Shown piece by piece: positions 11,872 through 24,977 of a stretch of DNA of 62,998 nt (its first letter is position 1; the number at the start of each line of letters is the position of its first letter). Below the pieces are notes generated by a model that ran no database searches, had not been told where the DNA came from, and saw only the letters and a list, made by a program, of their open reading frames with translations. Source of the DNA: Bacilli bacterium (GTDB lineage Bacteria; Bacillota_I; Bacilli_A; RFN20; CAG-826); the NCBI GenBank assembly GCA_017534425.1, contig JAFXWB010000002.1, positions 1 through 62,998 on the forward strand, in the 5' to 3' direction. The position numbers and the translations under genes are program-made.

Positions 11872-11900
11872 TTGTTTTATAAATTAGATTGTGTTACAAT
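11872..11900 (+). promoter_or_regulatory. Family promoter P1 (TAGATTGTGnTACAATA type)
   Basis: TTGTTT, 17-nt spacer, TACAAT (11895-11900), with the conserved TAGATTGTGT spacer end. Confidence 0.5.
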
Positions 11901-11948
11901 ATAATAGTAATGTTAAAACACCAAAAGACCAAAACACAAGGAGGCAAA

Positions 11949-12578
11949 ATGAAATACCAAAGCAAAAAAGACCCAACTATTACAGCAGCATTTGATTTTG
12001 AAAATGAAAAATTCAAAACAACACGTCTAATTTATCTAACAGGTTCAAAAGAAGGACAATCATTCGAGATTTCCAATTCAACATTAAAAAGATGGTGGAA
12101 GAAACTTGAAAGTGAAGAAGTTGAACAGAATGAAGTTCAAAAAGAAGAAGTGGTTGAAACTGTAGAAAATCCTTTAAATATTGATTTTGAAAAACTAGCT
12201 GAACCATATCACCCAGAAGTAACACCTCACTATATTCCAAAACCACAATCAGTAATTGAATATGAGGAAAAGAAACATAAAAGGGTAAAAGCAGATTTTG
12301 ATTACCCGAAGGATTACGAAACACTTGCTAATTTATTTGCTGAACGTAATATCAAAATGAAGAAAGTAAATCGTGGTTATATTTCATTGCCCGACAACTC
12401 AAAAATAAAAATATTGGTAGTTGGTATTGGTATTTTAGCGTCAGACGAATTAGCCGAGAAATTTGTTGCAAAGGGATTTCAAGCAAAACCCTGTATTGAA
12501 AAAGGCACACCATTTAGGTTTGATGTGAAAAATGCCGAAGAATACACAAAAATGTTGGAGGCACTTGCAGATGAATGA
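11949..12578 (+). CDS. Hypothetical protein
   Basis: 209 aa counted from ATG 11949 (SD AAGGAGG). The track start at 11889 is unlikely. Confidence 0.6.
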   Translation: MKYQSKKDPTITAAFDFENEKFKTTRLIYLTGSKEGQSFEISNSTLKRWWKKLESEEVEQNEVQKEEVVETVENPLNIDFEKLAEPYHPEVTPHYIPKPQSVIEYEEKKHKRVKADFDYPKDYETLANLFAERNIKMKKVNRGYISLPDNSKIKILVVGIGILASDELAEKFVAKGFQAKPCIEKGTPFRFDVKNAEEYTKMLEALADE

Positions 12579-13128
12579 CACGCTGAAATTACTTCAGCCA
12601 TTCATCAATTCGCAACTTGAAAACTTAACATTGGAGGAATTAGCATTTAAATATCAGTCTAACAATGAAACTATAATTTTAGCTACAAGTTTTAGTAAAA
12701 TATTCAAATTGGCTATACTTATTAAAAATGAATATTATGGTTTAGACGATACTGACATTGCTAGTTGGTGTTTGGAGAAGTTAGATTATTGTTTGAGGAC
12801 TTATAAAACAGGAAATTGTTTTACCACTTATTTTTCAGTTGTGTTTAAGAATAAACTTAGGGAAGAAACCGAAAAACTGAATTATAAAAAACGAAAGGGA
12901 ATTTTAGAGTCAATCAATGACATATTCGATATCGGTATATGCGATACATATAATTTAATTGATATGCTATTACCAAAAAACCTAACTGATAAAGAATATA
13001 CGTATTGTATATTAGCAAGTGAAGGATATGATAATTCATATATAGCTGATGAATTGAATGTATCTCGAATGACAATATCAAATATACGAAAATCTTTAAA
13101 AAACAAATGCTTAACTTTACAAATTTAA
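12571..13128 (+). CDS. Phage sigma-70-family (ECF-like) sigma factor candidate
   Basis: 185 aa from ATG 12571 (ATGAATGA overlap). Region-2-like FTTYFSVVFKNKLREE. Region-4 HTH LTDKEYTYCILASEGYDNSYIADELNVSRMTISNIRKSLKNK. Confidence 0.55.
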   Translation: MNDTLKLLQPFINSQLENLTLEELAFKYQSNNETIILATSFSKIFKLAILIKNEYYGLDDTDIASWCLEKLDYCLRTYKTGNCFTTYFSVVFKNKLREETEKLNYKKRKGILESINDIFDIGICDTYNLIDMLLPKNLTDKEYTYCILASEGYDNSYIADELNVSRMTISNIRKSLKNKCLTLQI

Positions 13129-13205
13129 TTCAATTACTATATATTTAATTGTACAAATTAAACCGACAAAAACACAAAAAGACCAAAAGTCGAAAGGAGA
13201 AATGT

Positions 13206-13865
13206 ATGGGAAGAATAAGTTTTGGTGACCTTGATAATTATGGGTCCAATGGTGCATATTTTCAGTTGAAAGACAACGGTAATAAAGCCAATGTACGTTT
13301 TTTGTATAATACCATTGATGATATTACACCTTATGTTGTTCATTCAATTCCTGATGGTACTTATCCAAATGGTAATCCTAAAACCGCATATGTTAACTGC
13401 CTTAGAAATTATGATGAACCTGTTGATAAGTGTCCGTTTTGTAAAGCAGGAATGACAGTTCAGCCAAAGTTAATGCTTAAACTGTATAACGAAGACGCAA
13501 AAGAGTGTCAAATTTGGGAGCGTGGTAAGGCATATGCGTCTCGTATGGCTAACTTAGCATCACATTTCAACCCACTTGTAAATGAAGTAATTGAAATTAC
13601 AAGGTGTGGTGCGAAGGGTGATAATCAGACAACATATGAGTTTATGCCTGTTGGTAATTCACCAGCTAATGTAGAGGATTTTGATTGTGTAGAACCACTT
13701 GGATTTAACATACTTGATAAAACTGCTGATGATATGGAAGCATATTTGAACCTCGGTGCATTTCCTGGTGATAGTGCAAATGTATCACAACAGAGAAATA
13801 ACAATAATCAGTATAACGGAAATGTTGTTAGACGTACACCGCCTACTAATTCAAGGGCATTTTAA
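13206..13865 (+). CDS. T4 gp32-like single-stranded DNA-binding protein
   Basis: ATG 13206 lies 5 nt after AAAGGAGA. YFQLKDNGNKANVRFL resembles the gp32 segment LKLD..GNG.AVIRFL. The Zn-site-like residues are C..(H)...CPFC. Confidence 0.55.
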   Translation: MGRISFGDLDNYGSNGAYFQLKDNGNKANVRFLYNTIDDITPYVVHSIPDGTYPNGNPKTAYVNCLRNYDEPVDKCPFCKAGMTVQPKLMLKLYNEDAKECQIWERGKAYASRMANLASHFNPLVNEVIEITRCGAKGDNQTTYEFMPVGNSPANVEDFDCVEPLGFNILDKTADDMEAYLNLGAFPGDSANVSQQRNNNNQYNGNVVRRTPPTNSRAF

Positions 13866-13874
13866 TTGAAGTGC

Positions 13875-13945
13875 AGGGGTATAGCCAAGCGGTAAGGCGG
13901 AGGACTTTGACTCCTTAATCGTTGGTTCGATTCCAACTATCCCTG
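13875..13945 (+). tRNA. tRNA-Gln (anticodon UUG)
   Basis: Cloverleaf by hand: acceptor AGGGGTA/TATCCCT, D-arm GCC-AAGCGGTAA-GGC, anticodon arm GAGGA-CUUUGAC-TCCTT, T-arm GTTGG-TTCGATT-CCAAC, discriminator G. Close to Firmicute tRNA-Gln. CCA is not encoded. Confidence 0.85.
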
Positions 13946-14461
13946 TTTGTCCTTTATAAGGACATAGAACTCCCATTACATCACATAAAGGTGCAGCCAC
14001 TTTGTAAAAAGTGCTTTATATGATGTAGGAATTTAATTATTAGTTATCATGCAGAGCATAACGAATTTTTAAATTCCAAAGTTGTTTATTATTGTTATGG
14101 TGCTATATCGATAATGAACAATCCTAGCAGTATTATTTTTTATGGTATGATTAACGCTGTGAAAAACTTGTTTATATCAATCGAATCGGCTATTACATAT
14201 CAGATAGCTTGGGTAACTATTAACTTGTGTGGATACCCATAAGATTATTTCATCTTGTGGTTAAGAAAAATAATCGTTTTCAAGTACATGACAACCTGAT
14301 TGATGTAGACCTTATCGTTTAAGTTTCACACTATATCTTCTCACTTCTTCCAAACCGAATAGACTTATAGTGAGGTTTATAAAACGATTTTAAATTGCAA
14401 ACCCATAATCCTTTCCTACCGAGGTTGGGTTGTTTGTTGTTTGTTTTTACCAAAGAGAGGT
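13946..14461 (+). ncRNA. Candidate large structured non-coding RNA (about 515 nt) between a tRNA and a tRNA-like element
   Basis: No ORF on either strand. Hand-found helices are:
- 13948-13964
- 13976-14028 (14 bp, capped by an inner CACTTT-GTAA-AAAGTG GNRA hairpin)
- 14028-14077 (GGAATTTAA/TTAAATTCC)
- 14082-14121 (11 bp)
- a long-range AATCGTTTT/AAAACGATT pairing (about 14272 with about 14382)
- CACTATA/TATAGTG
- ACCCA/TGGGT. Confidence 0.35.
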
Positions 14462-14544
14462 TGTAGTGTAACTCAGTTGGCTAGAGGAAGTTGTAAAGCC
14501 CATCCCTTTACAGTGTGTCGTGGGTTCAAGTCCCACCACTACAA
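14462..14544 (+). tRNA. tRNA-like element / aberrant tRNA (83 nt) with a non-canonical anticodon arm
   Basis: Acceptor TGTAGTG/CACTACA (8 bp if T14461-A14544 is included), D-loop AGTTGG, perfect T-arm GTGGG-TTCAAGT-CCCAC. The anticodon arm is a 7-8 bp stem TTGTAAAG/CTTTACAG with loop CCCAUCC (14499-14505), which lacks U33 and a purine at position 37. Confidence 0.5.
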
Positions 14545-14662
14545 TGCGCCCCTTTAGCCCAAAACGTGCGAGTCTTTATGGGACAATAAAGACGGGAACT
14601 AAGGTTGCGTAGTAGTATCAGCAGTGGTACTACTACGACCTATAAAAGAATAAGGAGTGATT

Positions 14663-16954
14663 ATGGCACTATTTGATTTACCAGAATCACGAAGTAATAG
14701 AGAAGCCGACAAAGCTGTTGTTAATAAGACCACCAACAAGCGGTCGGCTTCAATTGTTATGAAAGGTGATGGTATATTAGCTAAAATTTCAGCTATCAAT
14801 GCATTAGTTGAAAGTAAGTTAGGGCAATATAAAAATGAATATGATATTGCATGGGCAGATAATAATGTATTTGATACTGTAATTAAATCTTGTGTTAAGA
14901 ATGGTATATGTGCGATTGATACTGAAACAACCGGACTTAATCCTATTTCAGATGAAATAGTTGGTATGAGTATTTATACTCCTGATGAAAAGGCTATTTA
15001 TATTCCCATTCATCATGTAAGTTATATAACAGGTGTTGAAGTAGAAAATCAAATGCAAATAGATGAAATTCGTAAAGGATTACAATTACTTGTAGATAAT
15101 GATGTAAAAATCATTATGCACAATGCCAAGTTTGATATAAGGGTTATATGGAATAAAATTGGTATTAGACTTAAATGTTGGTTTGATACTCAATTAGCCG
15201 CACAATGCTTAAATGAAAATGAACCGCATAAATTAAAAATACTTCACCCTAAATATGTTCAAGGATTAACTGAAGAACAAAGAAAACAACAAGGTAAATT
15301 GTCGTTTGATGATTTATTTGAAGGTGTAACTTTTGATAAGATACCAATAAAAACGGGATTTGTATATGGTGCAAGGGACTCTATAATAACGTTTGAGTTA
15401 TACGAATTTCAGTTACCTTATTTAACGGTTGATAATCCAAAATGTATTGAGCAAGAATTACAAAGTGTTTGTAATGTATTCTGGAATATTGAAATGCCTT
15501 TTGTTGATGTAATAGTTGATTTAGAGCAAAACGGTATTTCATTAGATGTTGAATATGCACATAAACTTTCTGAAAAATATCATAAAATATTAGACCAAAA
15601 TATGAAAGATTATGAAAGTGTATTAGACAATTATAAAAAAGAAATTGAAGAATATAAAAAGAAAAATGTAAATCATAAATTATCAGACCCAATTTCAGTA
15701 TCAAGTCCAAAACAATTAGCCACTTTGATATATGATATTTTGAAAGTTGAACCACCCGATAAAGATAACCCACGTGGTACGGGAATTGAAATACTTGAAA
15801 AAATTGATAATCCATTATGTAAAGCAATATTAGCATGTAGGAAAACTGAAAAATTACTTAGTACTTATATTGATAAACTGCCTAACGAATTATTAAAAGA
15901 TGGTAAAATACATTGTTCTTTTAATCAATATGGTGCGAAGACAGGTAGGTTAAGTAGTGATAATCCCAACATGCAAAATATTCCATCACATAATAAAGAT
16001 GTGAGAAAAATGTTTGTTGCAAGTCCTGGAAACGTTTTAATATCATGCGATTTTTCACAACAGGAACCTCGTGTAATGACAGCTATGTGTGGTGACCCTG
16101 AAATGAGAAAAGCATATATTGAAGGACGTGATTTGTACGCTAGTATTGCAAGTATAGCATATAATGTATCATATGATGATTGTTTAGAAAAGTTTCCTGA
16201 TGGTACAACTAATCCTGAAGGAAAAGACCGGCGTGATAGTGCAAAAAGTATTTTCTTAGGTGTTTTGTATGGACGTGGTATAAACTCAATTGCAGAACAA
16301 TTACATACTACAAAACAAAAAGCACAAAAGATACAAAGTAGTATATTTAAAGAATTTCCTGCAATTAAACAATTCAGTGAAGATAGTTTAGACATGGTTG
16401 TTGAAAAAGGATATGTTACAACGTTTTGGGGAAGGAAAAGGCGACTTCCTGATATGCAATTACCCGAATATGAGTTTAAGTGGAAACCTGGTTATGGTGA
16501 TATAGACCCATTATCGTTTTATACAGAAGTAACTGAATTAGAAGTACCGGACGATATTGTTGAAGAATATACATATAAACTTAATAACTGTAATTGGAAA
16601 GATAAATCAAATATAAAACAACAAGCTGAAAAAGAAGGTATTATCATTATAGACAATGGTGGTAAAATTGCAGACGCAACCAGGCAAGTTGTTAATTCAC
16701 GTATTCAAGGTAGTGCGGCTGATATGTCAAAAATAGCTGGGATAAATATCAGTAAAAATGAACGATTAAAAGAATTGGGATTTAAATTATTAGTACCAAT
16801 ACATGATGAATACTTAGGCGAATGTCCGTATGAAAATAAAGATGAATGTGTTGAATTATTTAAACAATGCATGTGCGATGCTGCAAAAGAAACAGGATTG
16901 CCAATAAAAGTTGATGTAGTTGTATCTTATGAGTGGTACGGTGAAGCTATTTAA
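14663..16954 (+). CDS. polA: Family A DNA polymerase with 3'-5' exonuclease domain
   Basis: Exo I AIDTETTGL, Exo II HNAKFD, Pol motif A DFSQQEPR, motif B RRDSAKSIFLGVLYG, motif C VPIHDEY. ATG 14663 lies 5 nt after AAGGAG. Confidence 0.9.
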   Translation: MALFDLPESRSNREADKAVVNKTTNKRSASIVMKGDGILAKISAINALVESKLGQYKNEYDIAWADNNVFDTVIKSCVKNGICAIDTETTGLNPISDEIVGMSIYTPDEKAIYIPIHHVSYITGVEVENQMQIDEIRKGLQLLVDNDVKIIMHNAKFDIRVIWNKIGIRLKCWFDTQLAAQCLNENEPHKLKILHPKYVQGLTEEQRKQQGKLSFDDLFEGVTFDKIPIKTGFVYGARDSIITFELYEFQLPYLTVDNPKCIEQELQSVCNVFWNIEMPFVDVIVDLEQNGISLDVEYAHKLSEKYHKILDQNMKDYESVLDNYKKEIEEYKKKNVNHKLSDPISVSSPKQLATLIYDILKVEPPDKDNPRGTGIEILEKIDNPLCKAILACRKTEKLLSTYIDKLPNELLKDGKIHCSFNQYGAKTGRLSSDNPNMQNIPSHNKDVRKMFVASPGNVLISCDFSQQEPRVMTAMCGDPEMRKAYIEGRDLYASIASIAYNVSYDDCLEKFPDGTTNPEGKDRRDSAKSIFLGVLYGRGINSIAEQLHTTKQKAQKIQSSIFKEFPAIKQFSEDSLDMVVEKGYVTTFWGRKRRLPDMQLPEYEFKWKPGYGDIDPLSFYTEVTELEVPDDIVEEYTYKLNNCNWKDKSNIKQQAEKEGIIIIDNGGKIADATRQVVNSRIQGSAADMSKIAGINISKNERLKELGFKLLVPIHDEYLGECPYENKDECVELFKQCMCDAAKETGLPIKVDVVVSYEWYGEAI

Positions 16955-16963: not shown

Positions 16964-17941
16964 ATGAGTTTTGATTTGTATTTAGCATCGGCTGATGATG
17001 CTAAAATAATTGATTATATGTATGAAAATGACTATCCCTTGTTGTATAGTCAGTTGAATAACAGAAATTACATTTTAAAACACTTTGCTGCGCAAGAACA
17101 AAATATAACGCATGGTAAGTTGTTAGTTGATAGCGGTGCGCATTCTGCACATACTAAAGGCGTTAAACTTGATTTAGAAGAGTATATTGGTTTTGTAAAT
17201 GACAATATTGATAAAATGTCTTTATATGTACAAGTAGATAAAATTCCTGGTGTATATCGTAAACCAAAAACTGCAAAAGATTGGCTTGAAGCACCACAAT
17301 TAAGTTGGGAAAATTATTTGTATATGAAGGAAAAATCAAAGGACTGGACTAAACTTGTTCCTGTATTTCATCAAGGAGAGGATTATAAGTGGTTGGAAAA
17401 CTTGTGTGATTATGAGTTTTCAGACGGAAGTCATATACCATATATCGGACTTTCTCCTCGTGGTGATGTATCACTACAAGCTAAATATGATTTTTGTGCT
17501 AAGTGTTTTGCGGTAATTCAGAAAAGTAAAAACCCTAAAGTAAAAACTCATGCATTTGGAGCAACAAGTTTATCAATGTTGGAACGTTTACCATTTACAT
17601 CAGCAGATAGTACAACATGGGTACTTGTATCAGCATTTGGACAGGTGTGGATACCAACAGGAATAACAGGTGAAAGTGTTGATGATACAGTTGGAGTTAA
17701 ATTAGGGGTAAGTAAAGAAAACATAAATCATCAGACTGCAACATGGACATATTGGGAACAAAAACCTGAAATAAAAAAGAAGTTAGACGATTATTTTGAA
17801 AGTATTGGAACTAATATTGAAAAATTGTCTGAAAGTCATTCAGAGCGTAGTTTAGCCAGTGCTAAGTTTTGTCAAAATTGGGCTAAAAATTATCAATATA
17901 AAGGATTAGAAAAATTTACAAGTGTTAAGTCATTATTTTAA
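16964..17941 (+). CDS. dpdA: DpdA-like (TGT-fold) 7-deazaguanine DNA transglycosylase candidate
   Basis: 325 aa, SD AAGGAGG. The motifs LLVDSGAHSAH, VPVFHQGEDYKWLE, YIGLSPRG, THAFGATS and FTSADSTTW match the pattern of phage DpdA / archaeosine-TGT-like proteins. Confidence 0.6.
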   Translation: MSFDLYLASADDAKIIDYMYENDYPLLYSQLNNRNYILKHFAAQEQNITHGKLLVDSGAHSAHTKGVKLDLEEYIGFVNDNIDKMSLYVQVDKIPGVYRKPKTAKDWLEAPQLSWENYLYMKEKSKDWTKLVPVFHQGEDYKWLENLCDYEFSDGSHIPYIGLSPRGDVSLQAKYDFCAKCFAVIQKSKNPKVKTHAFGATSLSMLERLPFTSADSTTWVLVSAFGQVWIPTGITGESVDDTVGVKLGVSKENINHQTATWTYWEQKPEIKKKLDDYFESIGTNIEKLSESHSERSLASAKFCQNWAKNYQYKGLEKFTSVKSLF

Positions 17942-17950
17942 GGAGGAATT

Positions 17951-18574
17951 ATGATTTTATTTTTAGGAGACAGCTTAACGGAAGGCAGTAATAGCAAATT
18001 TTCATTTACTGATTATTTACCACCTGAGTATGAAATATTTAACTTAGGTGTAAGTGGAACTACAATTGGTGAATATTCTATATACCCTGTTGATGGTAAC
18101 AGTTTATTAGGTGTTATTGGAACTCATGGTGATTTGATACAGAGCGCAGATGAAATATTTATTGAATATGGTAGTAATGATGTATCAGCAATAATGTGTG
18201 GTTTTGCTACAATTCAAACTGTAATTGTGTCTTTTGTAAAAGCAATCGATTGGATAAAACAGTTAAATCCAAATGTTAGAATTCATTTTTTAGCATTTGG
18301 GGAAAGTGATAATATAATTTTAAGTCGTGGGATAAATATGTGTAATTACTTAGAAAAAGATTATTTTAGTAAATTTGATTTTAAATTTCCTGTAAGTATG
18401 TATGTAAGTACTTATAAAAAACTTATCTCACATATCAGTAAAGTCTGCGATATAATGTATATGTTTGACGATGAAATGATAAAAGATGAATTTTTGTCTG
18501 ACGATAATATTCACCCAAATGAAATCGGTCATGAGAGAATTGCTAAAAATATATTGAAACAAATTAGGGCTTAA
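17951..18574 (+). CDS. SGNH/GDSL-family hydrolase
   Basis: Block I FLGDSLTEG, block III YGSNDV, block V DDNIHPN. Confidence 0.75.
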   Translation: MILFLGDSLTEGSNSKFSFTDYLPPEYEIFNLGVSGTTIGEYSIYPVDGNSLLGVIGTHGDLIQSADEIFIEYGSNDVSAIMCGFATIQTVIVSFVKAIDWIKQLNPNVRIHFLAFGESDNIILSRGINMCNYLEKDYFSKFDFKFPVSMYVSTYKKLISHISKVCDIMYMFDDEMIKDEFLSDDNIHPNEIGHERIAKNILKQIRA

Positions 18575-18610
18575 CTTCATTTCCCTATTTGCATAATAAA
18601 ACTAAGGAGG
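18565..18610 (+). promoter_or_regulatory. Candidate preQ1-I-like riboswitch / translational leader of the YhhQ gene
   Basis: P1 UAGGG/CCCUA (18565-69 / 18583-87). Loop CUUA can pair with UAAG in the tail. The tail ...AAUAAAACUAAGGAGG resembles the canonical preQ1-I 3' tail and contains the SD. The tail is about 5 nt longer than typical. Confidence 0.3.
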
Positions 18611-18618
18611 ATAATTAA

Positions 18619-19299
18619 ATGAAGCAAAAACTAAAAAAGTATGAGGTGATGGCTTATTTCATGGCGGTGTATTGTACATTTACAGTTGTACAAAACCTCT
18701 TTGAAATGAAAACACTAGGAACAGACGCATTTGCGTTTGGTGGTGGTGGTGGTTTATTATCATGGGCAACATTTATGATAATAGATATTTCAACTGAATT
18801 GTTTGGTAAGAAAGATACAATCAAGTTGTACACTTTCGCAGGATTATTAAATTTATTTATTGTGGTAATTGCTCAAGTAATTATAGCATTACCGGGAGTA
18901 TATCCTGAACAAAACGAAGCATTTAGACTGATATTTAGTAATGGTATAAGAACAGCCTTTTCATCATTCGCAGCATTTTGGGTTGGTAATTTCATCAATA
19001 TGACTGTTATGATTAAGATGAAAGAACAAGCAGGTGAGCATGACAATAAATTCTTATTGTTTGTACGTGCGGTATTATCTACAATAGTTGGACAGTTTGT
19101 TGATAACTTTACATTTGCTACACTTGCATTTGCACCTATTGGTATTTCAGCATTTGAAATGACTTGGAAAGCAATATTTACATCATCATGTTTTGGAACA
19201 TTTATGGAAACTGTAAATGAAAGTATCTTTGTTCCATTTATTACAATTCCCTCTATTACAAAACTTAAGGGAAGATTTGAAGAGGAGCAAGTAGCATGA
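18619..19299 (+). CDS. yhhQ: YhhQ/VUT-family queuosine-precursor (7-deazapurine) transporter
   Basis: 226 aa, multi-TM. VRAVLSTIVGQFVDNFTFATLAF and the overall DUF165-like layout. Confidence 0.7.
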   Translation: MKQKLKKYEVMAYFMAVYCTFTVVQNLFEMKTLGTDAFAFGGGGGLLSWATFMIIDISTELFGKKDTIKLYTFAGLLNLFIVVIAQVIIALPGVYPEQNEAFRLIFSNGIRTAFSSFAAFWVGNFINMTVMIKMKEQAGEHDNKFLLFVRAVLSTIVGQFVDNFTFATLAFAPIGISAFEMTWKAIFTSSCFGTFMETVNESIFVPFITIPSITKLKGRFEEEQVA

Positions 19300-19856
19300 G
19301 TACAAAAACAAAGGTATTAACTACAATTGCATTGTCGGTGGCTATAAACATTGTTGGTAGTAAAATATCCTTGTTTTTAAGTTTACCGATATTTTTAGAT
19401 AGTATTGGTACAATTTTAGCTGGTGCTACGTTGGGACCGATAGCTGGATTAGTAACTGCATTGGTTGGTGGATTAGTAAATGGTGTATTGGGTGATATAT
19501 ATTCAATATATTTTGCACCCTCAGGAATGATAATGGGTTTACTTGCAGGTGTGGTATTATACCATAAAAAAGTTACAAAACTATCTGTAATATGGAAAAC
19601 TGCTTTAATTTCAGTACCGGCATCTTTTGTATCAGCACTTATTTCTACATATGTTTTTGGTGGTATTACATCAGCACTTCTTACAACAACTATTATTCAA
19701 GGGTTATCAAAAACTGTAATGGATTTATTTACAAGTGCTTTTGTAACACAAACATTAACTGATTATGTAGATAAACTTATTGCTGTGGTTTTAACACTTG
19801 TAATAATAAAACGTATACCACGTGGTATGTTGTATTTTGCTGATAACAAGCAATGA
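19296..19856 (+). CDS. ECF-transporter S-component-like membrane protein (QueT/QrtT-like by context)
   Basis: 186 aa, 5-6 TM. LDSIGTILAGATLGPIAGLVTALVGGLVNG is typical of ECF S components. Translationally coupled to yhhQ. Confidence 0.55.
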   Translation: MSTKTKVLTTIALSVAINIVGSKISLFLSLPIFLDSIGTILAGATLGPIAGLVTALVGGLVNGVLGDIYSIYFAPSGMIMGLLAGVVLYHKKVTKLSVIWKTALISVPASFVSALISTYVFGGITSALLTTTIIQGLSKTVMDLFTSAFVTQTLTDYVDKLIAVVLTLVIIKRIPRGMLYFADNKQ

Positions 19857-19885
19857 TTAAATGAGTATGTTATAAATTTACAAGA

Positions 19886-19926
19886 ATGCACTAATTACTA
19901 TATATTACGGTAGTTAGTGCATTTTT
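19886..19926 (+). terminator. Rho-independent terminator
   Basis: 12-bp stem TGCACTAATTAC / GTAGTTAGTGCA followed by TTTTT. Confidence 0.75.
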
Positions 19927-19936
19927 AAATTAGTCT

Positions 19937-19965
19937 TTGATATATTACATAGATTGTGATACAAT
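19937..19965 (+). promoter_or_regulatory. Family promoter P2
   Basis: TTGATA, 17-nt spacer ending in TAGATTGTGA, TACAAT (19960-19965). Confidence 0.55.
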
Positions 19966-20006
19966 ATAAATAGTTAAAAATAATATATTATTTTAAGGAT
20001 GTGTGT

Positions 20007-20183
20007 ATGAGTAAAAAAATTACTAATTTAGACAAACTACATGAAATGTTTCCTGATGTGCCATTTAATATTAATGGGTGCAAAGGGATTGATTGTAAAG
20101 AAGGTATTTGTCTTCACCGTAATGAATGTGAATGGAATAATTTTTGGTGCAAAGAATATAAAGGAGTAAACGGTAATGACTAA
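20007..20183 (+). CDS. Cys-rich small protein
   Basis: 58 aa from ATG 20007, with AAGGA 7 nt upstream. Six Cys residues. Confidence 0.5.
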   Translation: MSKKITNLDKLHEMFPDVPFNINGCKGIDCKEGICLHRNECEWNNFWCKEYKGVNGND

Positions 20184-20496
20184 AGTTTTAGAACCGTTAT
20201 ATTATTACAAGCTAAATGAAAGTACAGGCAAAATCATAAAAGTAAATATATTTAATTATGAAGAAGGAAGATTCACTAATTGTAGACGTTTTTATCGTTG
20301 GAAAAATAATAGTGGTATAACAATGTATTGCTATGAAAATGAAATTGATAAGGCAAAAGATTGGCGAGTATATACATTCAATAATAATGATGATTTTGCC
20401 AAACATATGTTGACAGAATATGTAAGAGCTAAATACACAAAATATGAAAGTGAAGCAAAACGTTATAAAAGGATTTTGAAATTATTGGAGGTATAA
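20176..20496 (+). CDS. Hypothetical protein
   Basis: 106-aa ORF with SD AAGGAG upstream. Confidence 0.55.
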   Translation: MTKVLEPLYYYKLNESTGKIIKVNIFNYEEGRFTNCRRFYRWKNNSGITMYCYENEIDKAKDWRVYTFNNNDDFAKHMLTEYVRAKYTKYESEAKRYKRILKLLEV

Positions 20497-20497
20497 A

Positions 20498-20860
20498 ATG
20501 ACAAGAGAAGAAGCCATAACAGTATTCAAAGCATTTATGGAAAATCCCTTATTTAGTGACGTACATAAAGCCGCCTTTAGTATCGCAATACATGACATTA
20601 AGCAACGTCACGATTGGGATATTAACAATTTGATTTTAATAAATAAAGATAATTATGAGCCATTAGAGCAAGAGCCAATTAAAGGACATTGGATATGTCA
20701 TATAAAACATTGTGAAATGAATAATTTAAGACCGAGTGGGTTAGGATGTTATTTTTGGTGTTCTAATTGTGATTGTGGTATTGATAGTAAGAATTTTAGT
20801 AGGGTGAATTATAACTATTGTCCTAACTGTGGTGCAGATATGAGAGAGGTAGAAGAATGA
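20498..20860 (+). CDS. Zinc-ribbon protein with EQEP-x-GHWI motif
   Basis: LEQEPIKGHWI followed by CSNCDCG...YCPNCGADM. Paralogous to the gene at 22103-22432. Confidence 0.6.
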   Translation: MTREEAITVFKAFMENPLFSDVHKAAFSIAIHDIKQRHDWDINNLILINKDNYEPLEQEPIKGHWICHIKHCEMNNLRPSGLGCYFWCSNCDCGIDSKNFSRVNYNYCPNCGADMREVEE

Positions 20861-21183
20861 CAAAACATGAGATAAGAGAGGTATTTATACATTCTATTGC
20901 AGAACAGTACGAAAATCATGGTGAGCGTATTCCTAGTTGGTTGCATATCGGAGATATTGAGTTTGAGGTAGAAGAACAAGAACCATTCAAGCCAATGGCT
21001 GAAATAGACCTTTATTCAGTTATCAAGCAAGAATACATTGAGCGTGAAATTCTCAACAAGATAAGAGCCGAGATTGAGTACACAATGAAATATCAATATG
21101 CTATTGGAGATGACCAATATGCAGAGGGATTTGAGAAAAGCCTAGAAATCATCGACAAGTACAAGGCAGAAAGTGAGGATTAA
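20857..21183 (+). CDS. Hypothetical protein
   Basis: 108-aa ORF. Its start lies within a junction-type sequence GAGGTAGAAGAATGA. Confidence 0.55.
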   Translation: MTKHEIREVFIHSIAEQYENHGERIPSWLHIGDIEFEVEEQEPFKPMAEIDLYSVIKQEYIEREILNKIRAEIEYTMKYQYAIGDDQYAEGFEKSLEIIDKYKAESED

Positions 21184-21483
21184 ATGGCAGATATAGAGTT
21201 AGTAATGAAAATATCAGAAGATTTTATTGATAAGATGGATTCGATTAAAGATGACAGGGAATTATCACGGGAACAGTTACTTACTGTGTACAGAGGATTT
21301 CATGCAATGTTACACCATGGCATACCACTTCCTAAAGGACATGGAAGATTAATTGATGAAAAAGAATTAAAGAAAGAAGCAATAAGATGTGAGTGGAGCA
21401 GGAATATGTATGACAAACTTGACTACACACTGTCTTACATGAAGCCAATCATAGAAGCAGATATTAGAGAGGTAAAAGAATGA
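21184..21483 (+). CDS. Hypothetical protein
   Basis: 99-aa ORF with SD GAGGA upstream. Confidence 0.55.
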   Translation: MADIELVMKISEDFIDKMDSIKDDRELSREQLLTVYRGFHAMLHHGIPLPKGHGRLIDEKELKKEAIRCEWSRNMYDKLDYTLSYMKPIIEADIREVKE

Positions 21484-21743
21484 CAAGAGAAGAAGCAATA
21501 GAATTTGGAAATATGTGGCTTCAAATAAATGAAGATTGTAAAGATAGTAGTACCTATGAATTTTTTCAAAAGGCAACTAAAGCCTTAGAGGAAGAAGCAG
21601 AACGTAAGCCAACAGGAACGTATGAGGAAATGATGACATTTCATCTTAGTGCAATTGCGGCAATACTTATAGATATATCCAAAAGCCTTGCGGTAATTGC
21701 TGACAAAGCAGAAAGTGAGGTAGAAGATGGCGAATGTAAATAA
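21480..21743 (+). CDS. Hypothetical protein
   Basis: 87-aa ORF with ATGA overlap. It ends ...AESEVEDGECK inside a junction repeat. Confidence 0.55.
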   Translation: MTREEAIEFGNMWLQINEDCKDSSTYEFFQKATKALEEEAERKPTGTYEEMMTFHLSAIAAILIDISKSLAVIADKAESEVEDGECK

Positions 21744-21933
21744 TGACGTAACAGTAACATTATCACAGGAGGATAAGGAACTACTGATAAAAGCTATTAA
21801 GACGTGTGAACAGATTGCAAAGAATTGTAATTATAATTGCGATATGTTCATTGATGCAGGAACAGTTTTTGCTGAAATCTTTGATGAATATAAGAATGGC
21901 GAACTTCCTACAGTAATACATTTATATGAGTGA
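21727..21933 (+). CDS. Hypothetical protein
   Basis: 68-aa ORF starting in the junction repeat AGTGAGGTAGAAGATGG. Confidence 0.55.
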   Translation: MANVNNDVTVTLSQEDKELLIKAIKTCEQIAKNCNYNCDMFIDAGTVFAEIFDEYKNGELPTVIHLYE

Positions 21934-21941
21934 GGTAGAAG

Positions 21942-22106
21942 ATGGGAATAATTAAGTTTGATGTAGATATTGGCAAATGGATATTACCCATAGCACTAGA
22001 ACTGAACTTGGTAGGGAATAACCATCGACCATATAACTTTATGATTAGGTTCTTATGTTTCAGTTTGATTATTTGTATTGATGAGGAAGCGAGGGATAAG
22101 GAATGA
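21942..22106 (+). CDS. Hypothetical 54-aa protein (below the ORF-track cutoff)
   Basis: ATG 21942 lies in a junction repeat: MGIIKFDVDIGKWILPIALELNLVGNNHRPYNFMIRFLCFSLIICIDEEARDKE. ATGA overlap with the next gene. Loosely resembles the 22926-23117 product. Confidence 0.45.
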   Translation: MGIIKFDVDIGKWILPIALELNLVGNNHRPYNFMIRFLCFSLIICIDEEARDKE

Positions 22107-22432
22107 GCGCAGAAGATATTGGTGATTATAAAGAATTTCCAACAAAAGAGTCGGCATTAGATTGGCTTGATAATTATTTAAGTCTTGATGAAAGAAACAA
22201 TCTTATAAGGGTATTAGAGCAAGAGCCAAAGACAGGGCATTGGATAGATACTAATAACCATCAATATTACAATGATGGAGATATTGAAACTACTGAACTA
22301 AAGTGTTCATGTTGTAATGAAGAAGTTGAATGGGATATAGAATTATTACATAAACCTTTTTTCTGTGAAAATTGCGGAGCAAAGATGGTTGAGCCACAGG
22401 AAAGTGAGGTAGAAAATGGGAATGACGATTGA
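22103..22432 (+). CDS. Zinc-ribbon protein with EQEP-x-GHWI motif
   Basis: LEQEPKTGHWI, CSCCNEE...FCENCGAKM. Ends ESEVENGNDD* in a junction repeat. Confidence 0.6.
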   Translation: MSAEDIGDYKEFPTKESALDWLDNYLSLDERNNLIRVLEQEPKTGHWIDTNNHQYYNDGDIETTELKCSCCNEEVEWDIELLHKPFFCENCGAKMVEPQESEVENGNDD

Positions 22433-22640
22433 TAAAACAATAGAATTTTTTAACGGATTAGAGTGCCATACTCCACAGGCTAAAGATGCAAGAGATGTGG
22501 CAGTTGACACCATGCGTAAGTATCAGAAGATTGAACAGATAGCTTTTCCTTTACAGTTTTGCACAACAGACAAACTAGAGCATGAAGCAATTATGAAAAT
22601 ATGCGAGGTATTAGAAGATGGGAATGACGGTAGGCAATAG
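22416..22640 (+). CDS. Hypothetical protein (MGMTID start)
   Basis: 74-aa ORF starting in a junction repeat. Confidence 0.55.
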   Translation: MGMTIDKTIEFFNGLECHTPQAKDARDVAVDTMRKYQKIEQIAFPLQFCTTDKLEHEAIMKICEVLEDGNDGRQ

Positions 22641-22836
22641 AATCACACTTGCTTTAAAAATGCGAGGTATATCACAAAAGGAATTAGCAAACAAAACACG
22701 AATGACAGAACAGACCATAAGTAGATACGTGCATGATGTTCGCACACCAAATGCAAAAGCAATAAAGATATTGTGCAAGGCTTTATGTGTAAGTGCTGAT
22801 TGGTTATTGGGAGTAGAAAATGGGAATGACGATTGA
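22618..22836 (+). CDS. XRE/Cro-type HTH transcriptional regulator
   Basis: LKMRGISQKELANKTRMTEQTISRYVHDVRTPNAKAIKILCKALCVSADWLLG. Confidence 0.7.
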   Translation: MGMTVGNRITLALKMRGISQKELANKTRMTEQTISRYVHDVRTPNAKAIKILCKALCVSADWLLGVENGNDD

Positions 22837-22933
22837 TACAGACCCAATATGTGAATCATGCAAGAAAGATTGGACTAAATGCGGTACTTGTCCTGTTATG
22901 ATGCAATGGGTAAAGGAGCATAAGCATGAATGA
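22820..22933 (+). CDS. 37-aa CxxC...CxxC mini-protein (below the ORF-track cutoff)
   Basis: MGMTIDTDPICESCKKDWTKCGTCPVMMQWVKEHKHE. It starts in a junction repeat and overlaps the next ATG. Confidence 0.45.
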   Translation: MGMTIDTDPICESCKKDWTKCGTCPVMMQWVKEHKHE

Positions 22934-23117
22934 TTTTGATTGGGGTAAGACCTTTGGTAGATTTTTTATCTCATTTATCATCAATGATGATTTCTTTGGA
23001 ATAGCAATTAGAATCGGAAAAGAGTATGCGGATGATGCAAGTTGTGGAGTTTTTCATTTAATAATACAGATAGGTTATGGACAATTTACCATAGGCATTG
23101 CAGAAAAGGAGTTGTGA
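22926..23117 (+). CDS. Hypothetical protein
   Basis: 63-aa ORF with SD AAGGAG upstream. Confidence 0.5.
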   Translation: MNDFDWGKTFGRFFISFIINDDFFGIAIRIGKEYADDASCGVFHLIIQIGYGQFTIGIAEKEL

Positions 23118-23119
23118 AG

Positions 23120-23266
23120 ATGGATGCAACAATTAACATATCAATGGGAACTAAAGACTATGAGTTTTACAATGTTCCCGAGAAAGTAGCAAAGGCAATA
23201 ATCACACTTCTGCATGAGTGTGAAAAAGATGATAGCACTATTGTTTCAGCTATCAGTGAGAGGTAG
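23120..23266 (+). CDS. Hypothetical 48-aa protein
   Basis: ATG 23120 lies 8 nt after AAAAGGAG. The track start at 23042 is unlikely. Confidence 0.5.
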   Translation: MDATINISMGTKDYEFYNVPEKVAKAIITLLHECEKDDSTIVSAISER

Positions 23267-23269
23267 AAG

Positions 23270-23530
23270 ATGGGAATGAGAACAATCATTATGCATCCAA
23301 CAGTTGAAAGAGCTACGCAAAATTGGTTACAGTTATGCAGAAATCACAAGTCTTTGATTAAAGAAGCAAAACGTAATCCTTTATCGGTCAAATTTATCAA
23401 TGGTGATATCTGGTACTTTAGAGGGGAAACAGAAGGTGCAAGGGCATACAAAGGTTATCATGCTGAAATGATTAGTGTTGATGATTTCCCGCTTGATGAC
23501 AAAATTGGTGAAGTTTTTGTAAAGGAGTAG
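23270..23530 (+). CDS. Hypothetical protein (MGM start)
   Basis: 86-aa ORF starting in a junction repeat. Confidence 0.55.
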   Translation: MGMRTIIMHPTVERATQNWLQLCRNHKSLIKEAKRNPLSVKFINGDIWYFRGETEGARAYKGYHAEMISVDDFPLDDKIGEVFVKE

Positions 23531-23533
23531 AAG

Positions 23534-23683
23534 ATGGGAATGACGATTGATATATCAGACGGGATGTTAGAATTGATGCTATACAAATTCAAAAAATGGC
23601 TTGGTTCAGTACCTAGAGAGTTACAGAACAGGCAGATTAAACATAAGCTGTATATGGAGGATGAAAATGGGAATGTCGATTGA
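23534..23683 (+). CDS. Hypothetical 49-aa protein (below the ORF-track cutoff)
   Basis: MGMTIDISDGMLELMLYKFKKWLGSVPRELQNRQIKHKLYMEDENGNVD. Both its start and its end lie in junction repeats. Confidence 0.45.
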   Translation: MGMTIDISDGMLELMLYKFKKWLGSVPRELQNRQIKHKLYMEDENGNVD

Positions 23684-23816
23684 GGAAGCAATAATAAGAT
23701 GCAAAAACAATGCCGAGTATGAGCGTACTCATGGTAATTTGCAAGGATGTTTAGAATTTAGACAGCTTGCGAAATGGTTAGAAGAGTTAAGGGCATATCT
23801 CAAATTGTTTAAGTAA
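23667..23816 (+). CDS. Hypothetical 49-aa protein (MGMSIE start)
   Basis: ATG 23667 lies in a junction repeat. The track start at 23601 is unlikely. Confidence 0.5.
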   Translation: MGMSIEEAIIRCKNNAEYERTHGNLQGCLEFRQLAKWLEELRAYLKLFK

Positions 23817-23830
23817 AAAGGAGTTAGAAG

Positions 23831-24148
23831 ATGAAAGTAGTCAGAGTAAATGATTTTGATATTCCGTCAGATGAAAATGATTATGACGAGTTAGTAGCTT
23901 TTGCAGACACAATGGCAAGTATTGAACAGTTTGAAGCAATCCCAAAAGACCAATACGAAGCAAGATTAAAGGCTGATATGGTGGCTATGCTTACAGAGAT
24001 ACAGTTGGAGATTGAAGACACTGGCGCATATGAGCAGGAAGTAAATGGGAAGACAGAGTATCTTAAAGGTATTAATTATGCTTATTCTGTTATCCAACAG
24101 AAAATCAATGAGTTAAAGGAGAATAAAGATGGCAGTAATAATAACTAA
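23831..24148 (+). CDS. Hypothetical acidic protein
   Basis: 105-aa ORF with SD AAGGAG upstream. Confidence 0.55.
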   Translation: MKVVRVNDFDIPSDENDYDELVAFADTMASIEQFEAIPKDQYEARLKADMVAMLTEIQLEIEDTGAYEQEVNGKTEYLKGINYAYSVIQQKINELKENKDGSNNN

Positions 24149-24431
24149 TATGGATATGCCTAAGAGTTGTTCTGATTGTAATCTTTGTTCATGTCAAAAA
24201 ATTGGACTATTTTATTGTGATATAACTACATCTTACATTGACATAGATAGTGAAGAACGTGATGCGGATTGTCCTCTTAAATCAACAGATGAAATCATCA
24301 AAGAATTTGGAAATGCTTCAAGCAACTATCCAGAAGATGATGATTATAACCAAGGCATTCATTACGGATTACATGTAGCGGAACAAATAATTGAGCATAT
24401 ATTGTACGGAGAGAACACAGATGAAAACTGA
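24129..24431 (+). CDS. Cys-rich hypothetical protein
   Basis: 100-aa ORF with SD AAGGAG. CSDCNLCSC...C motif. Confidence 0.55.
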   Translation: MAVIITNMDMPKSCSDCNLCSCQKIGLFYCDITTSYIDIDSEERDADCPLKSTDEIIKEFGNASSNYPEDDDYNQGIHYGLHVAEQIIEHILYGENTDEN

Positions 24432-24594
24432 TGACGCCTATACAAAAATAATTAACCAATTAGATGTGTTACACAGAGAAGTTTTAGCTATGATAAATTT
24501 ATTCCTTATTTCACAGGGAGTTGATGATACTGAACGAAATACATATTTAGGTACAATGATGAAAAAATGGGAAGATGAAAGGAAAAGATACTAA
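24421..24594 (+). CDS. Hypothetical 57-aa protein
   Basis: ATG 24421 lies 7 nt after GGAGAG. Confidence 0.45.
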   Translation: MKTDDAYTKIINQLDVLHREVLAMINLFLISQGVDDTERNTYLGTMMKKWEDERKRY

Positions 24595-24836
24595 TGAAAA
24601 TCAAAAGTATATTATCAATAATAGCATTAACCGTATTATTAACAGGCTGTAACAAACAGGTAGTGGATTTTAATTACACTTTTAACTATGCTATTATTCA
24701 GTTACCTAATGGAGAGATAGTTCAAGGATATGTTGAGTCGTGGACTGATTATGAGGATGGAGAACAGTTGCAGGTTAAGATAGACGGTGTAACATATCTC
24801 TGCTCTTCCTATAACTGTGTATTGATGCATAAGTGA
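24594..24836 (+). CDS. Lipoprotein
   Basis: The signal peptide MKIKSILSIIALTVLLTGC carries a lipobox LTGC. Confidence 0.65.
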   Translation: MKIKSILSIIALTVLLTGCNKQVVDFNYTFNYAIIQLPNGEIVQGYVESWTDYEDGEQLQVKIDGVTYLCSSYNCVLMHK

Positions 24837-24845
24837 GGAGAAGAA

Positions 24846-24977
24846 ATGATAGGATACATACTAGTAACAATAGGATTATGCTTTGTAAGTTATATATTAG
24901 GAATAATAGCAGGAACAAGACATTGTTTTGAATACTTGAAGGAAAAATTAAATGAAGCCAAAAGGAACGAGAAATAG
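24846..24977 (+). CDS. 43-aa single-TM peptide (below the ORF-track cutoff)
   Basis: SD GAGGAG. MIGYILVTIGLCFVSYILGIIAG TM followed by a charged tail. Confidence 0.4.
   Translation: MIGYILVTIGLCFVSYILGIIAGTRHCFEYLKEKLNEAKRNEK

Follow-up and report, generated by a model that had tools for sequence, protein, structure and literature searches.

Can a phage enzyme that exchanges bases in DNA be fed by uptake from the environment rather than by synthesis? Modification of DNA with 7-deazaguanines by the transglycosylase DpdA is an established anti-restriction strategy, and in every characterised case known to us preQ0 is made by the phage or by its host. The question is raised by a stretch of 62,998 nucleotides deposited with a Bacilli bacterium assembly (contig JAFXWB010000002.1 of GCA_017534425.1; "the window" hereafter means this whole stretch), which appears to comprise almost the whole genome, in circularly permuted form, of a tailed phage of about 65 kb, a distant relative of Streptococcus phage Dp-1. 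In the window, a DpdA-like gene is followed by the genes for a hydrolase and two importers, and a QueH gene lies about 10 kb 3' of this cassette. The genes concerned are as follows.

14657-16954, + strand: DNA polymerase PolA, family A with 3'-5' exonuclease (Pfam DNA_pol_A 1.2e-83, DNA_pol_A_exo1 2e-20)
16964-17941, + strand: DpdA (ORF1), 325 amino acids
17951-18574, + strand: SGNH/GDSL hydrolase (ORF2), 207 amino acids
18619-19299, + strand: QPTR/YhhQ permease (ORF3), 226 amino acids
19296-19856, + strand: energy-coupling factor (ECF) S-component (ORF4), 186 amino acids
29434-29967, + strand: QueH (Pfam QueH 6.4e-55)

The reading that we prefer, to which we assign a probability of roughly 60%, is that ORF1 to ORF4 form a salvage-fed DNA-modification module, encoded by the last four genes of a replication operon, in which the importers would supply DpdA.

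For ORF1, all of the motifs from which a DpdA-like transglycosylase had been proposed in the original prediction (VDSGAHS, PVFHQGE, YIGLSP, HAFGATS and SADSTTW) were found. The protein matches the PHROGs family phrog_887, 'queuine tRNA-ribosyltransferase' (9.8e-46, residues 32-314), and shares 39% identity with the DpdA of Dp-1 (gp07) across 97% of its length. The structure of ORF1 was predicted with AlphaFold2 from an alignment of database matches (mean predicted local distance difference test score, pLDDT, 81.8; predicted template modelling score, pTM, 0.80), and the seven best Foldseek matches of the model in the Protein Data Bank (PDB) were all tRNA-guanine transglycosylases (TGTs) of archaeal, bacterial and eukaryotic origin (probability 0.99-1.00, query-normalised TM-score 0.48-0.53). 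As modelled, ORF1 thus has a (beta/alpha)8 barrel of the TGT type.

In the DpdA of S. Montevideo, the catalytic residues are D95, D130, H181 and D256, which are the general acid/base, the base-recognition residue, the His of the His-Gly motif and the nucleophile, respectively (PMC10164549). In ORF1, residues D56, D92, H136, E139, H196 and D215 are invariant in a 10-sequence alignment of the clade, and D56 (DSG), D92 (VDKIPG), H136 (FHQGE) and D215 (SADSTTW) are also kept in the motifs of 31 DpdAs. By motif order and strand position, the latter four would correspond to the acid/base Asp, the recognition Asp, the His of His-Gly and the nucleophile Asp. A loss of the barrel or of the catalytic Asp residues, a possibility considered beforehand, was not seen, as the barrel is present in the model and the Asp residues are invariant. 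These results suggest that ORF1 is a Dp-1-type DpdA of the TGT superfamily, predicted to exchange guanine in the phage DNA for a 7-deazaguanine base. In the two phages that provide the experimental precedent, dPreQ1 was found in Dp-1 virion DNA, and the modification was lost from phage CAjan upon deletion of dpdA (PMC6884629).

For ORF3, the proposed assignment to the YhhQ/VUT transporters held, with matches above the cut-offs to Vut_1 (PF02592; 8e-29, 101.4 bits against a cut-off of 27.2) and to TIGR00697, 'queuosine precursor transporter' (56.8 bits against 50.95). Since the model of the E. coli YhhQ equivalogs (PRK11212) gave only 22 bits against a cut-off of 252, ORF3 is a distant member of the family, and is best read as a QPTR/YhhQ-family (COG1738) permease for queuosine precursors. 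YhhQ adjoins DpdA in many of the related loci, as well as in Streptococcus virus MS1.

For ORF4, the prediction of a QueT- or QrtT-type importer stood in part. ORF4 is an ECF S-component (ECF_trnsprt, PF12822; 6.5e-11, 43 bits against a cut-off of 30.7), and it is not a QueT: no PF06177 match was obtained, and Dp-1 QueT found nothing better than E = 5.6 in the window. Its closest cellular homologues, 56-61% identical, are from Butyrivibrio and Pseudobutyrivibrio, which suggests that the gene was probably captured from a Butyrivibrio-like host lineage; a pattern scan of IMG/VR for relatives of the S-component confirmed none. Six bacterial loci with homologues 40-61% identical to ORF4 were compared, from Butyrivibrio MC2021, P. 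xylanivorans, E. faecium, E. mundtii and two metagenomic Firmicute contigs. In all six, a gene for an inosine-uridine nucleoside hydrolase family protein (IU_nuc_hydro) lies immediately upstream of the S-component gene, and in P. xylanivorans a QueT gene stands alongside the pair. In addition, the two enterococcal operons carry a PreQ1-I riboswitch (RF00522) about 24 nucleotides 5' of the hydrolase gene, which scores above the gathering threshold of 39 bits:

L025, 4954-4998 (E. faecium): PreQ1-I riboswitch 5' of the IU_nuc_hydro/ECF S-component operon, 47.6 bits
L115, 2952-2996 (E. mundtii): PreQ1-I riboswitch 5' of the IU_nuc_hydro/ECF S-component operon, 40.8 bits

The combination of riboswitch and operon implies a queuosine salvage unit of the queK-qrtT type, without queL, in enterococci. 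In C. difficile, according to two reports that summarise the work of Yuan et al. (2019), a queK-qrtT-queL operon is controlled by a preQ1 riboswitch, QueK releases queuine from queuosine, and QrtT imports preQ1, queuine (q) and queuosine (Q) (PMC11477304, PMC11130926). Because the loci of the ORF4 homologues have the architecture of this operon, ORF4 is best described as a QrtT-like S-component of a family that belongs to the queuosine regulon. It must dock on the EcfAA'T module of the host.

The hydrolase is missing from the window, and is encoded next to the S-component in related phages. The hydrolase of one of these (locus L077) matches PF01156 at 6e-73 and is 39% identical to the riboswitch-linked hydrolase of E. 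faecium. The IU_nuc_hydro proteins match the Rih-type models (RihA/RihC) of NCBIfam below their cut-offs; NCBIfam contains no QueK-specific model, and a sequence-similarity network is required to decide whether a hydrolase belongs to the QueK subgroup (PMC12632869).

The absence of preQ0 synthesis genes from the window, on which the idea of uptake had been founded, was confirmed by several independent searches. No match was obtained when QueF, QueC, QueD, QueE, FolE and QueT of Dp-1 were compared with the window by tblastn. Pfam scans of the ORFs at both ends of the window and around QueH yielded only replication, lysis, packaging and structural functions, and the precomputed Pfam annotation of identical contigs, covering about 6.9-40 kb, contained no queuosine-pathway gene except QueH. 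A hidden QueE or QueL was ruled out, as a scan of the ORFs of the window for the radical-SAM motif CxxxCxxC returned no plausible candidate; likewise, no QueL or other radical-SAM gene was found in the precomputed Pfam annotation within 10 kb on either side of the loci of the relatives. Overall, genes for FolE, QueD, QueE, QueC, QueF, QueL, QueA and TGT were not found in the window.

The strongest support for uptake in place of synthesis comes from the comparison of related phages. About 70 related loci were collected from IMG/VR, from metagenomes and from other assemblies, and about 45 of them had informative flanks; these were profiled with probes taken from the window, Dp-1 and phage Flasso. 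PolA is conserved 5' of DpdA in nearly all of the related loci, and in the roughly 45 informative ones DpdA, in the slot between PolA and DnaN, is always joined either by genes for preQ0/preQ1 synthesis or by a transporter, which is YhhQ, QueT or an ECF S-component. Besides DpdA, the slot is occupied as follows.

QueC/QueD/QueE/FolE: L010-L012
QueC/FolE/QueF: L106, L108, L110, Dp-1 and Flasso
QueT: L096, L099, L100 and L102
YhhQ alone: L005-L009, L092, L093 and L095
SGNH and YhhQ: the commonest arrangement in the close clade
SGNH, YhhQ and ECF S-component: the window
SGNH, YhhQ, ECF S-component and IU_nuc_hydro: L017 and L018
SGNH, ECF S-component and IU_nuc_hydro, without YhhQ: L078 and L079; L081 ends after the ECF S-component
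ECF S-component and IU_nuc_hydro alone: L077
ECF S-component alone: L089 and L090

The pair of S-component and hydrolase thus stands next to DpdA in five loci (L017, L018, L077, L078 and L079). From these slot contents it follows that synthesis genes and importers are alternative occupants of a single position beside DpdA. The alternation strongly supports the proposal that DpdA would be fed by uptake rather than by synthesis.

Three further arrangements were seen in relatives. In L003 (8997-9944), L017 (8903-9799), L077 (9040-9939) and L078 (9040-9939), an ORF of about 299-315 amino acids weakly resembling glycosyltransferases lies directly 5' of DpdA; it is not in the window, it matches Glycos_transf_2 at E = 0.0024 (below the cut-off) and phrog_2456 at 3.8e-6, and it may be a further tailoring enzyme. 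In a more distant phage of about 116-119 kb (L009, 8253-10945; L098 is alike), YhhQ is followed by a QueC-like PP-loop protein (PF06508, 7e-15), then by a small ORF and finally by DpdA, an order suggesting that the imported precursor has yet to pass through a QueC-type step. In L006-L008 (about 11000-14260), the stretch from DpdA and YhhQ to DnaN also contains genes for a DUF4406 protein, a 458-residue protein and a methyltransferase-like protein, in this order, and these additional genes look like DNA-modification or nucleoside-metabolism genes.

The base that DpdA would insert was approached through the beta6-alpha6 loop, which reads the 7-substituent in TGT and DpdA (PMC10164549). The 31 DpdAs were aligned, grouped by supply type, and their residues were mapped by motif order. 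The loop reads 'GG', as in TGT, in the two lineages that have QueC, QueD, QueE and FolE without QueF; 'SPAND' in every QueF-carrying phage, including Dp-1, and in the QueT group; and 'SP(A/S)ND' or 'SPRGD' in most of the transporter-only phages, SPRGD being the form in the window. Because the loop matches the type associated with QueF and dPreQ1, a 7-aminomethyl base, preQ1 or possibly queuine, is the likely substrate. In addition, the beta7 motif HAFGAT is unique to the subclade that has SGNH, S-component or hydrolase, and the other DpdAs have HAFGMT or, in three lineages, HGFGV or HGFAV; the change from Met to Ala could widen the pocket. Both patterns are correlations over a few independent lineages.

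The arrangement of the four genes directly 3' of the DNA polymerase proved to be as originally described in coordinates, strand, junctions and motifs. The gaps are 9 nucleotides between PolA and DpdA, 9 between DpdA and SGNH and 44 between SGNH and YhhQ, and the YhhQ and S-component genes overlap by 4 nucleotides (ATGA). A strong Shine-Dalgarno sequence precedes each gene of the cassette; DpdA and SGNH share an identical ribosome-binding site, TAAGGAGGAATT-ATG, and that of YhhQ is TAAGGAGG. No riboswitch or other cis-acting RNA was detected in the window within or 5' of the cassette. The following control elements bound the units.

11872-11920, + strand: promoter repeat copy TTG...TAGATTGTGTTACAAT (repeat family D2), with a sigma-70-like site at 11876-11905 scoring 10/12
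19882-19931, + strand: intrinsic-terminator-like hairpin with U-run (18-bp stem, dG -20.7 kcal/mol, z = -7.1 against shuffles, followed by UUUUUAAAUU)
19935-20011, + strand: promoter repeat copy (repeat family D1), with a TG-extended sigma-70-like site at 19937-19965, opening the unit that ends in QueH
29954-29971, + strand: terminator-like hairpin at the QueH stop codon, with the next promoter repeat copy at 29984

The promoter copies belong to a family of direct repeats of 49-77 nucleotides centred on TTGAATAGATTGTGTTACAAT, with copies at 11872, 19935, 29984, 35965, 38341 and 40131, which appear to represent an extended -10-type phage promoter bounding the early and middle transcription units. 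The copy at 11872 is the likely start of the unit that ends in the cassette. Given the tight junctions, the terminator at 19882-19931 and the next promoter copy at 19935, the cassette is the 3' end of the replication-gene transcription unit, and QueH is the last gene of the next one. Between the cassette and DnaN lies a block of about 5 kb (19935-25170) with some 20 small ORFs and internal duplications (repeat families D5 and D6), which is missing from close relatives, where DnaN comes right after the cassette; the block resembles a hypervariable island of early genes.

For ORF2, the assignment to the SGNH hydrolases was borne out by the Pfam family Lipase_GDSL_2 (8.5e-12) and by the motifs GDS, GSND and DNIHPN. 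Residues S8, G36, N76, D185 and H188, which make up blocks I (GDS), II (G), III (GxND) and V (DxxH), are invariant among 18 homologues 46-73% identical to ORF2. The AlphaFold2 model (pLDDT 91.4) matches GDSL esterase folds at probability 1.00, the nearest folds being GDSL esterases, sialate O-acetylesterase and platelet-activating factor acetylhydrolase. The catalytic residues are clearly intact in the alignment, which points to selection on ORF2 as an enzyme, probably a small cytoplasmic one of acetyl-esterase-like character. Among the matches listed, all homologues at 46-73% identity are on phage-sized contigs of at most about 65 kb. No close cellular relative was found in 185,579 species genomes, where only generic GDSL proteins at 22-37% identity were present, in uninformative contexts. 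Within the close clade (DpdA at least 63% identical), SGNH, where present, always lies between DpdA and the importer; it is missing from L077, L089 and L090 inside that clade and from the more distant phages with DpdA and YhhQ, and is thus restricted to this phage subclade. The suggestion that the esterase is a tailoring or salvage step therefore gained nothing beyond adjacency in one subclade, its cellular relatives being uninformative and its fold that of a generic acetyl-esterase. It may deacylate a salvaged derivative or tailor the inserted base.

The QueH homologue noted in the original prediction was also confirmed. It scores 186.4 bits with PF02677 against a cut-off of 23.5, its residues 3-170 align end to end with T. 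maritima QueH (7LC5, 3e-20), and the cysteine pattern CCAP...RCxxC...YCGC is kept, so that by sequence it is a cobalamin-independent epoxyqueuosine reductase (DUF208). The gene closes its own unit and overlaps the end of recA/uvsX. The clade member L027 has a QueH, 57% identical, in the same slot after RecA, and the exact QueH protein occurs in phage context in other samples; QueH was not found in L003, L004, L017 or L019 and is missing from most clade members. A QueH is also encoded by L026, a phage that differs structurally and in which no DpdA lies within 10 kb; another is present in Escherichia phage HannyBb, which is lambda-like. Thus, the statement of a 2019 survey that no virus carries QueA, QueG or QueH (PMC6884629) no longer holds for QueH. 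Two human faecal records labelled 'UNVERIFIED Bacteriophage sp.', L116 (MT835504.1) and L117 (MT835608.1), which are the two largest QueH-bearing gut contigs of the phage database, were rejected as evidence for phage QueH, because they are contaminating fragments of bacterial chromosomes (ABC transporters, ArgH, Asd, topoisomerase, MreB); the other unannotated short QueH contigs of that database are probably bacterial contamination too.

The distribution of QueH, patchy in the clade and extending to phages without DpdA, argues for an independent accessory gene. Its most likely role is the conversion of epoxyqueuosine (oQ) to Q on host tRNA, which is plausible because some Firmicutes lack both QueG and QueH (PMC12632869) and because NAU codons make up 80% of the Asn, Asp, His and Tyr codons of the phage; these four amino acids account for 19% of all codons. 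The proposal that QueH acts in DNA tailoring or salvage is accordingly weakened by its separate transcription unit, its presence in only some clade members and its occurrence in phages without DpdA, and a role in tRNA is at least as likely. The tRNAs of the phage were ruled out as QueH substrates, as no tRNA with a GUN anticodon was found in the window, which encodes only a tRNA-Gln(UUG) at 13874-13946 and one atypical tRNA-like element. The latter lies at 14462-14544, between tRNA-Gln(UUG) and PolA, scores 39.4 bits with the Rfam tRNA model and is negative in ARAGORN; its acceptor, D and T arms are normal, and its anticodon region of 26 nucleotides has a 6-bp stem and a CCCAUCC loop without U33.

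Among known systems, the window is closest to the Dp-1 module, which consists of the QueF-like gp01, QueC, QueD, QueE, FolE, QueT and DpdA (gp07) and places dPreQ1 on about 1.7% of the virion guanines (PMC6884629). Dp-1 has the closest characterised DpdA, the same 'SP..D' type of loop and an ECF-type importer next to DpdA, and the replication synteny (PolA, DnaN, Cas4-like, RecU, UvsX/RecA, clamp loader) is shared. In contrast to Dp-1, the window lacks the five synthesis genes, has a QrtT-like S-component (PF12822) in place of QueT (PF06177) and HAFGAT in place of HAFGMT in beta7, and adds the QPTR/YhhQ permease, SGNH and QueH. By analogy, the system would work like a Dp-1 module in which the supply half has been exchanged for a bacterial queuosine-salvage toolkit.

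With the C. difficile queK-qrtT-queL operon the phages share the pairing of S-component and hydrolase (all six bacterial homologue loci and phages L017, L077 and L078), and the Enterococcus homologues share the PreQ1 riboswitch. The phage version differs in that it would feed a DNA transglycosylase rather than a tRNA TGT, in that no QueL was seen and the window has no hydrolase, and in that the S-component precedes the hydrolase in the phages, the reverse of the bacterial order; the likeness to the C. difficile QrtT (CD1683) is one of operon architecture. A group of 76 'DpdA-only' phages described by Hutinet et al. in 2019, such as Salmonella phage 7-11, also has DpdA without preQ0 genes, and in MS1 a YhhQ-like gene lies immediately 5' of DpdA. 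For the DpdA-only phages a host-made or imported precursor was proposed, and YhhQ was noted in some phages, in 2019 (PMC6884629), so that the idea of an uptake-fed DpdA and phage YhhQ are already known. The window differs from them in its two importers of different families, its SGNH esterase and QueH, and its relatives in the QueK-like hydrolase. Finally, ORF1 shares with the bacterial Dpd system (S. Montevideo DpdA, PMC10164549) the TIM-barrel TGT-like fold and the order of the catalytic motifs, which runs from the acid/base Asp through the recognition Asp, His-Gly and the substituent-reading loop to the nucleophile Asp, whereas the DpdB ATPase, DpdC and the CxCxxC...H zinc site are lacking and Ins8 is much smaller, the whole protein having 325 residues.

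In the literature, no report was found in which DpdA adjoins a QrtT-type S-component and a QueK-like hydrolase, has a conserved SGNH partner or occurs with QueH in the same genomes, nor one of a correlation between DpdA substrate loop and supply type; searches for 'CD3073', for a connection of SGNH/GDSL enzymes to queuosine or deazaguanine and for QueK/QrtT in phages returned nothing relevant. The association of QrtT, the QueK-like hydrolase, SGNH and QueH with DpdA is new.

Taken together, the following sequence of events is proposed. The YhhQ permease and the QrtT-type S-component, the latter on the host EcfAA'T, would import queuosine-family compounds from the environment: preQ1, possibly preQ0, queuine or queuosine. 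The Dp-1-type DpdA would then remove guanine from the phage DNA and put in the imported 7-deazaguanine, most likely preQ1 as in Dp-1, and the modified DNA would be shielded from restriction and other nucleases. The SGNH esterase, as a partner of DpdA, may deacylate the salvaged precursor or tailor the inserted base, and QueH, as a separately transcribed accessory, would most likely complete the step from epoxyqueuosine to queuosine on host tRNA.

Several points weigh against this proposal. ORF1 had no match to Pfam TGT at E<=0.01 and no TGT or DpdA match in NCBIfam, and sequence and profile searches of the PDB returned only noise, with no related chain; for this reason its identity had to rest on PHROGs, the homology to Dp-1 and the fold. 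Of the families to which the original prediction had pointed, Lipase_GDSL_2, Vut_1 and ECF_trnsprt were thus matched, and TGT and QueT were not. ORF1 also has no CxCxxC zinc motif, its only cysteines being at 148, 178, 181 and 303. The structural site CxCxxC...H is conserved in bacterial DpdA and in TGTs, and since an alignment of the Dp-1 subgroup contains neither this motif nor any invariant Cys, the whole Dp-1-type subgroup departs from it. The imported compound cannot be read from the sequences, because the specificities of QPTR and QrtT members differ (preQ0, preQ1, q, Q; PMC11130926). The best NCBIfam model for ORF4, 'CD3073 family putative ECF S component', scores 87.9 bits, under its cut-off of 180, and no PreQ1 riboswitch was found at the four hydrolase/S-component operons outside Enterococcus, including the Butyrivibrio ones closest to ORF4. 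All DpdAs tested biochemically insert preQ0 (PMC10516641), and direct insertion of preQ1 is unsettled for Dp-1 itself, despite the dPreQ1 in its DNA (PMC6884629). The proposal does not account for the SGNH esterase. The host might itself supply preQ0 or preQ1, and the inference of the host depends on the similarity of one gene. Finally, since the longest contig encoding the same DpdA is 65.3 kb, against 63.0 kb for the window, a couple of kb of the phage genome may fall outside it.

Three other explanations were weighed. In one, the DNA would be modified at the level of queuine: imported Q or q would be hydrolysed as needed by a QueK-like enzyme, of the host or, in the relatives, of the phage, and DpdA would insert queuine to give 2'-deoxyqueuosine (dQ) or a derivative. 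The QueK-like hydrolase beside DpdA in relatives raises the plausibility of such a base, most directly in L077, where the slot contains only DpdA, S-component and hydrolase; L078 and L079 (and L081, cut off after the S-component) pair SGNH with the S-component without YhhQ, although in the commonest arrangement of the clade, SGNH and YhhQ, the latter is the only importer. No QueL or radical-SAM gene was found in the window or near the loci of the relatives, and what happens in streptococci to QueK-released queuine when QueL is missing is acknowledged to be unsettled (PMC12632869); however, QueL is common in gut Firmicutes (PMC11130926) and would turn queuine into preQ1 for ordinary dPreQ1. Eukaryotic and some bacterial TGTs insert queuine after enlargement of the pocket (PMC10164549, PMC11130926), and the HAFGAT motif unique to the subclade would fit, but the placement of the Met-to-Ala change in the pocket relies on motif order, acceptance of queuine is not known for any DpdA, and there is no report of dQ in DNA. 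The same explanation would have QueH reduce epoxy forms and the SGNH enzyme, with the glycosyltransferase-like protein in relatives, tailor the cyclopentenediol, for example by acylation/deacylation or glycosylation. QueH is in the same genome in two clade members and the glycosyltransferase-like ORF lies just 5' of DpdA in L003, L017, L077 and L078, yet the known target of QueH is tRNA-bound oQ, and DpdA-less phages encode QueH too. We regard both the queuine-level base and its tailoring as unlikely, though worth keeping in view.

A second explanation, which we consider distinctly improbable, is that the module serves mainly tRNA, the importers and QueH raising Q at position 34 of host tRNAs for NAU-rich phage genes and DpdA sharing the pool or being minor. 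It agrees with oQ-tRNA being the only known QueH substrate, with QueH in the DpdA-less phages HannyBb and L026, with Firmicutes that halt at oQ for want of QueG and QueH (PMC12632869), and with the NAU share of 80%, the figure for the two Butyrivibrio-type loci being 64-74%; the codon bias, however, simply tracks the guanine-cytosine (GC) content of 32%. The phage has no TGT, QueA or GUN-anticodon tRNA, QueH is in a different transcription unit and missing from most clade members, and the transporters are always attached to DpdA and replace synthesis genes in exactly the Dp-1-like slot. The remaining explanation holds that the S-component, with the hydrolase in relatives, and SGNH are general scavenging or host-takeover genes beside DpdA by synteny, and that DpdA uses preQ0 or preQ1 of the host. 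Synteny is kept among related phages whatever the function, the SGNH fold is generic, the hydrolases match the generic RihA/RihC models below cut-offs, ORF4 weakly resembles the folate-type S-component family, and the Butyrivibrio operons have no detected riboswitch. Against these stand the PreQ1 riboswitches directly 5' of the homologous operon in two Enterococcus species, the QueT gene beside the pair in P. xylanivorans, the match of the pair to the experimentally characterised queK-qrtT (PMC11477304), and L077, where the pair is the sole accessory content between DpdA and DnaN, at a position that is taken up in other phages by YhhQ, QueT or synthesis genes. We give this explanation very little credence, and the salvage-fed module supplying DpdA is retained as the preferred reading.

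In keeping with a nearly complete phage genome, the window has an endolysin gene at 863, terminase genes at 41.6 and 44.9 kb and tail genes up to 61 kb. An assembly chimera was ruled out: the cassette, and likewise the context of QueH, is identical on independent assemblies of other samples, so that the cassette is not an artefact of assembly. A megablast search with the cassette against 50,697 phage records gave no match, and the lineage is known from metagenomes only. The host is probably a Butyrivibrio-like member of the Lachnospiraceae of the rumen or gut, as suggested by the closest cellular homologues of the S-component.

Other features of the window were noted as follows.

4333-4635: rubrerythrin-like ORF of 100 amino acids (PF02915, 4.7e-5, barely over the cut-off), possibly serving a phage of anaerobes as an auxiliary gene in iron handling or under oxidative stress
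32403-34141: clamp-loader (DnaX-like) gene, split by a GIY-YIG/NUMOD3 homing-endonuclease ORF at 32908-33474; in the relatives L017 and L018 a GIY-YIG gene interrupts PolA instead
44674-44816: three tandem 46-nucleotide repeats, 72-100% identical, just 5' of the terminase large-subunit gene at 44929, which may be a packaging or regulatory site
48385-48482: GP20-a RNA motif (Rfam RF02991, 68.4 bits against a gathering threshold of 47.2), just 5' of an ORF at 48489 in the head-gene region

The locus represents an abundant clade of rumen and gut phages that joins a queuosine-salvage toolkit (QPTR, QrtT, the QueK-like hydrolase of relatives and QueH) to DpdA. Were the base queuine, the phage DNA would contain a natural base new to DNA, with queuosine scavenged in the gut or rumen as its sole source, and the queuosine micronutrient pool would for the first time be seen to serve in protecting a genome. 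If the salvage-fed module operates as proposed, the series of supply modules in one slot would be usable for assigning the specificity of DpdA, as exemplified by the correlation between loop and QueF, and the clade would offer a system for asking what becomes of QueK-released queuine without QueL. The SGNH esterase and QueH may, in that case, define new tailoring steps, even a new DNA base. Moreover, the protection of the phage genome would depend on a micronutrient shared between microbes, and the phage would be in competition for it with both host and animal.

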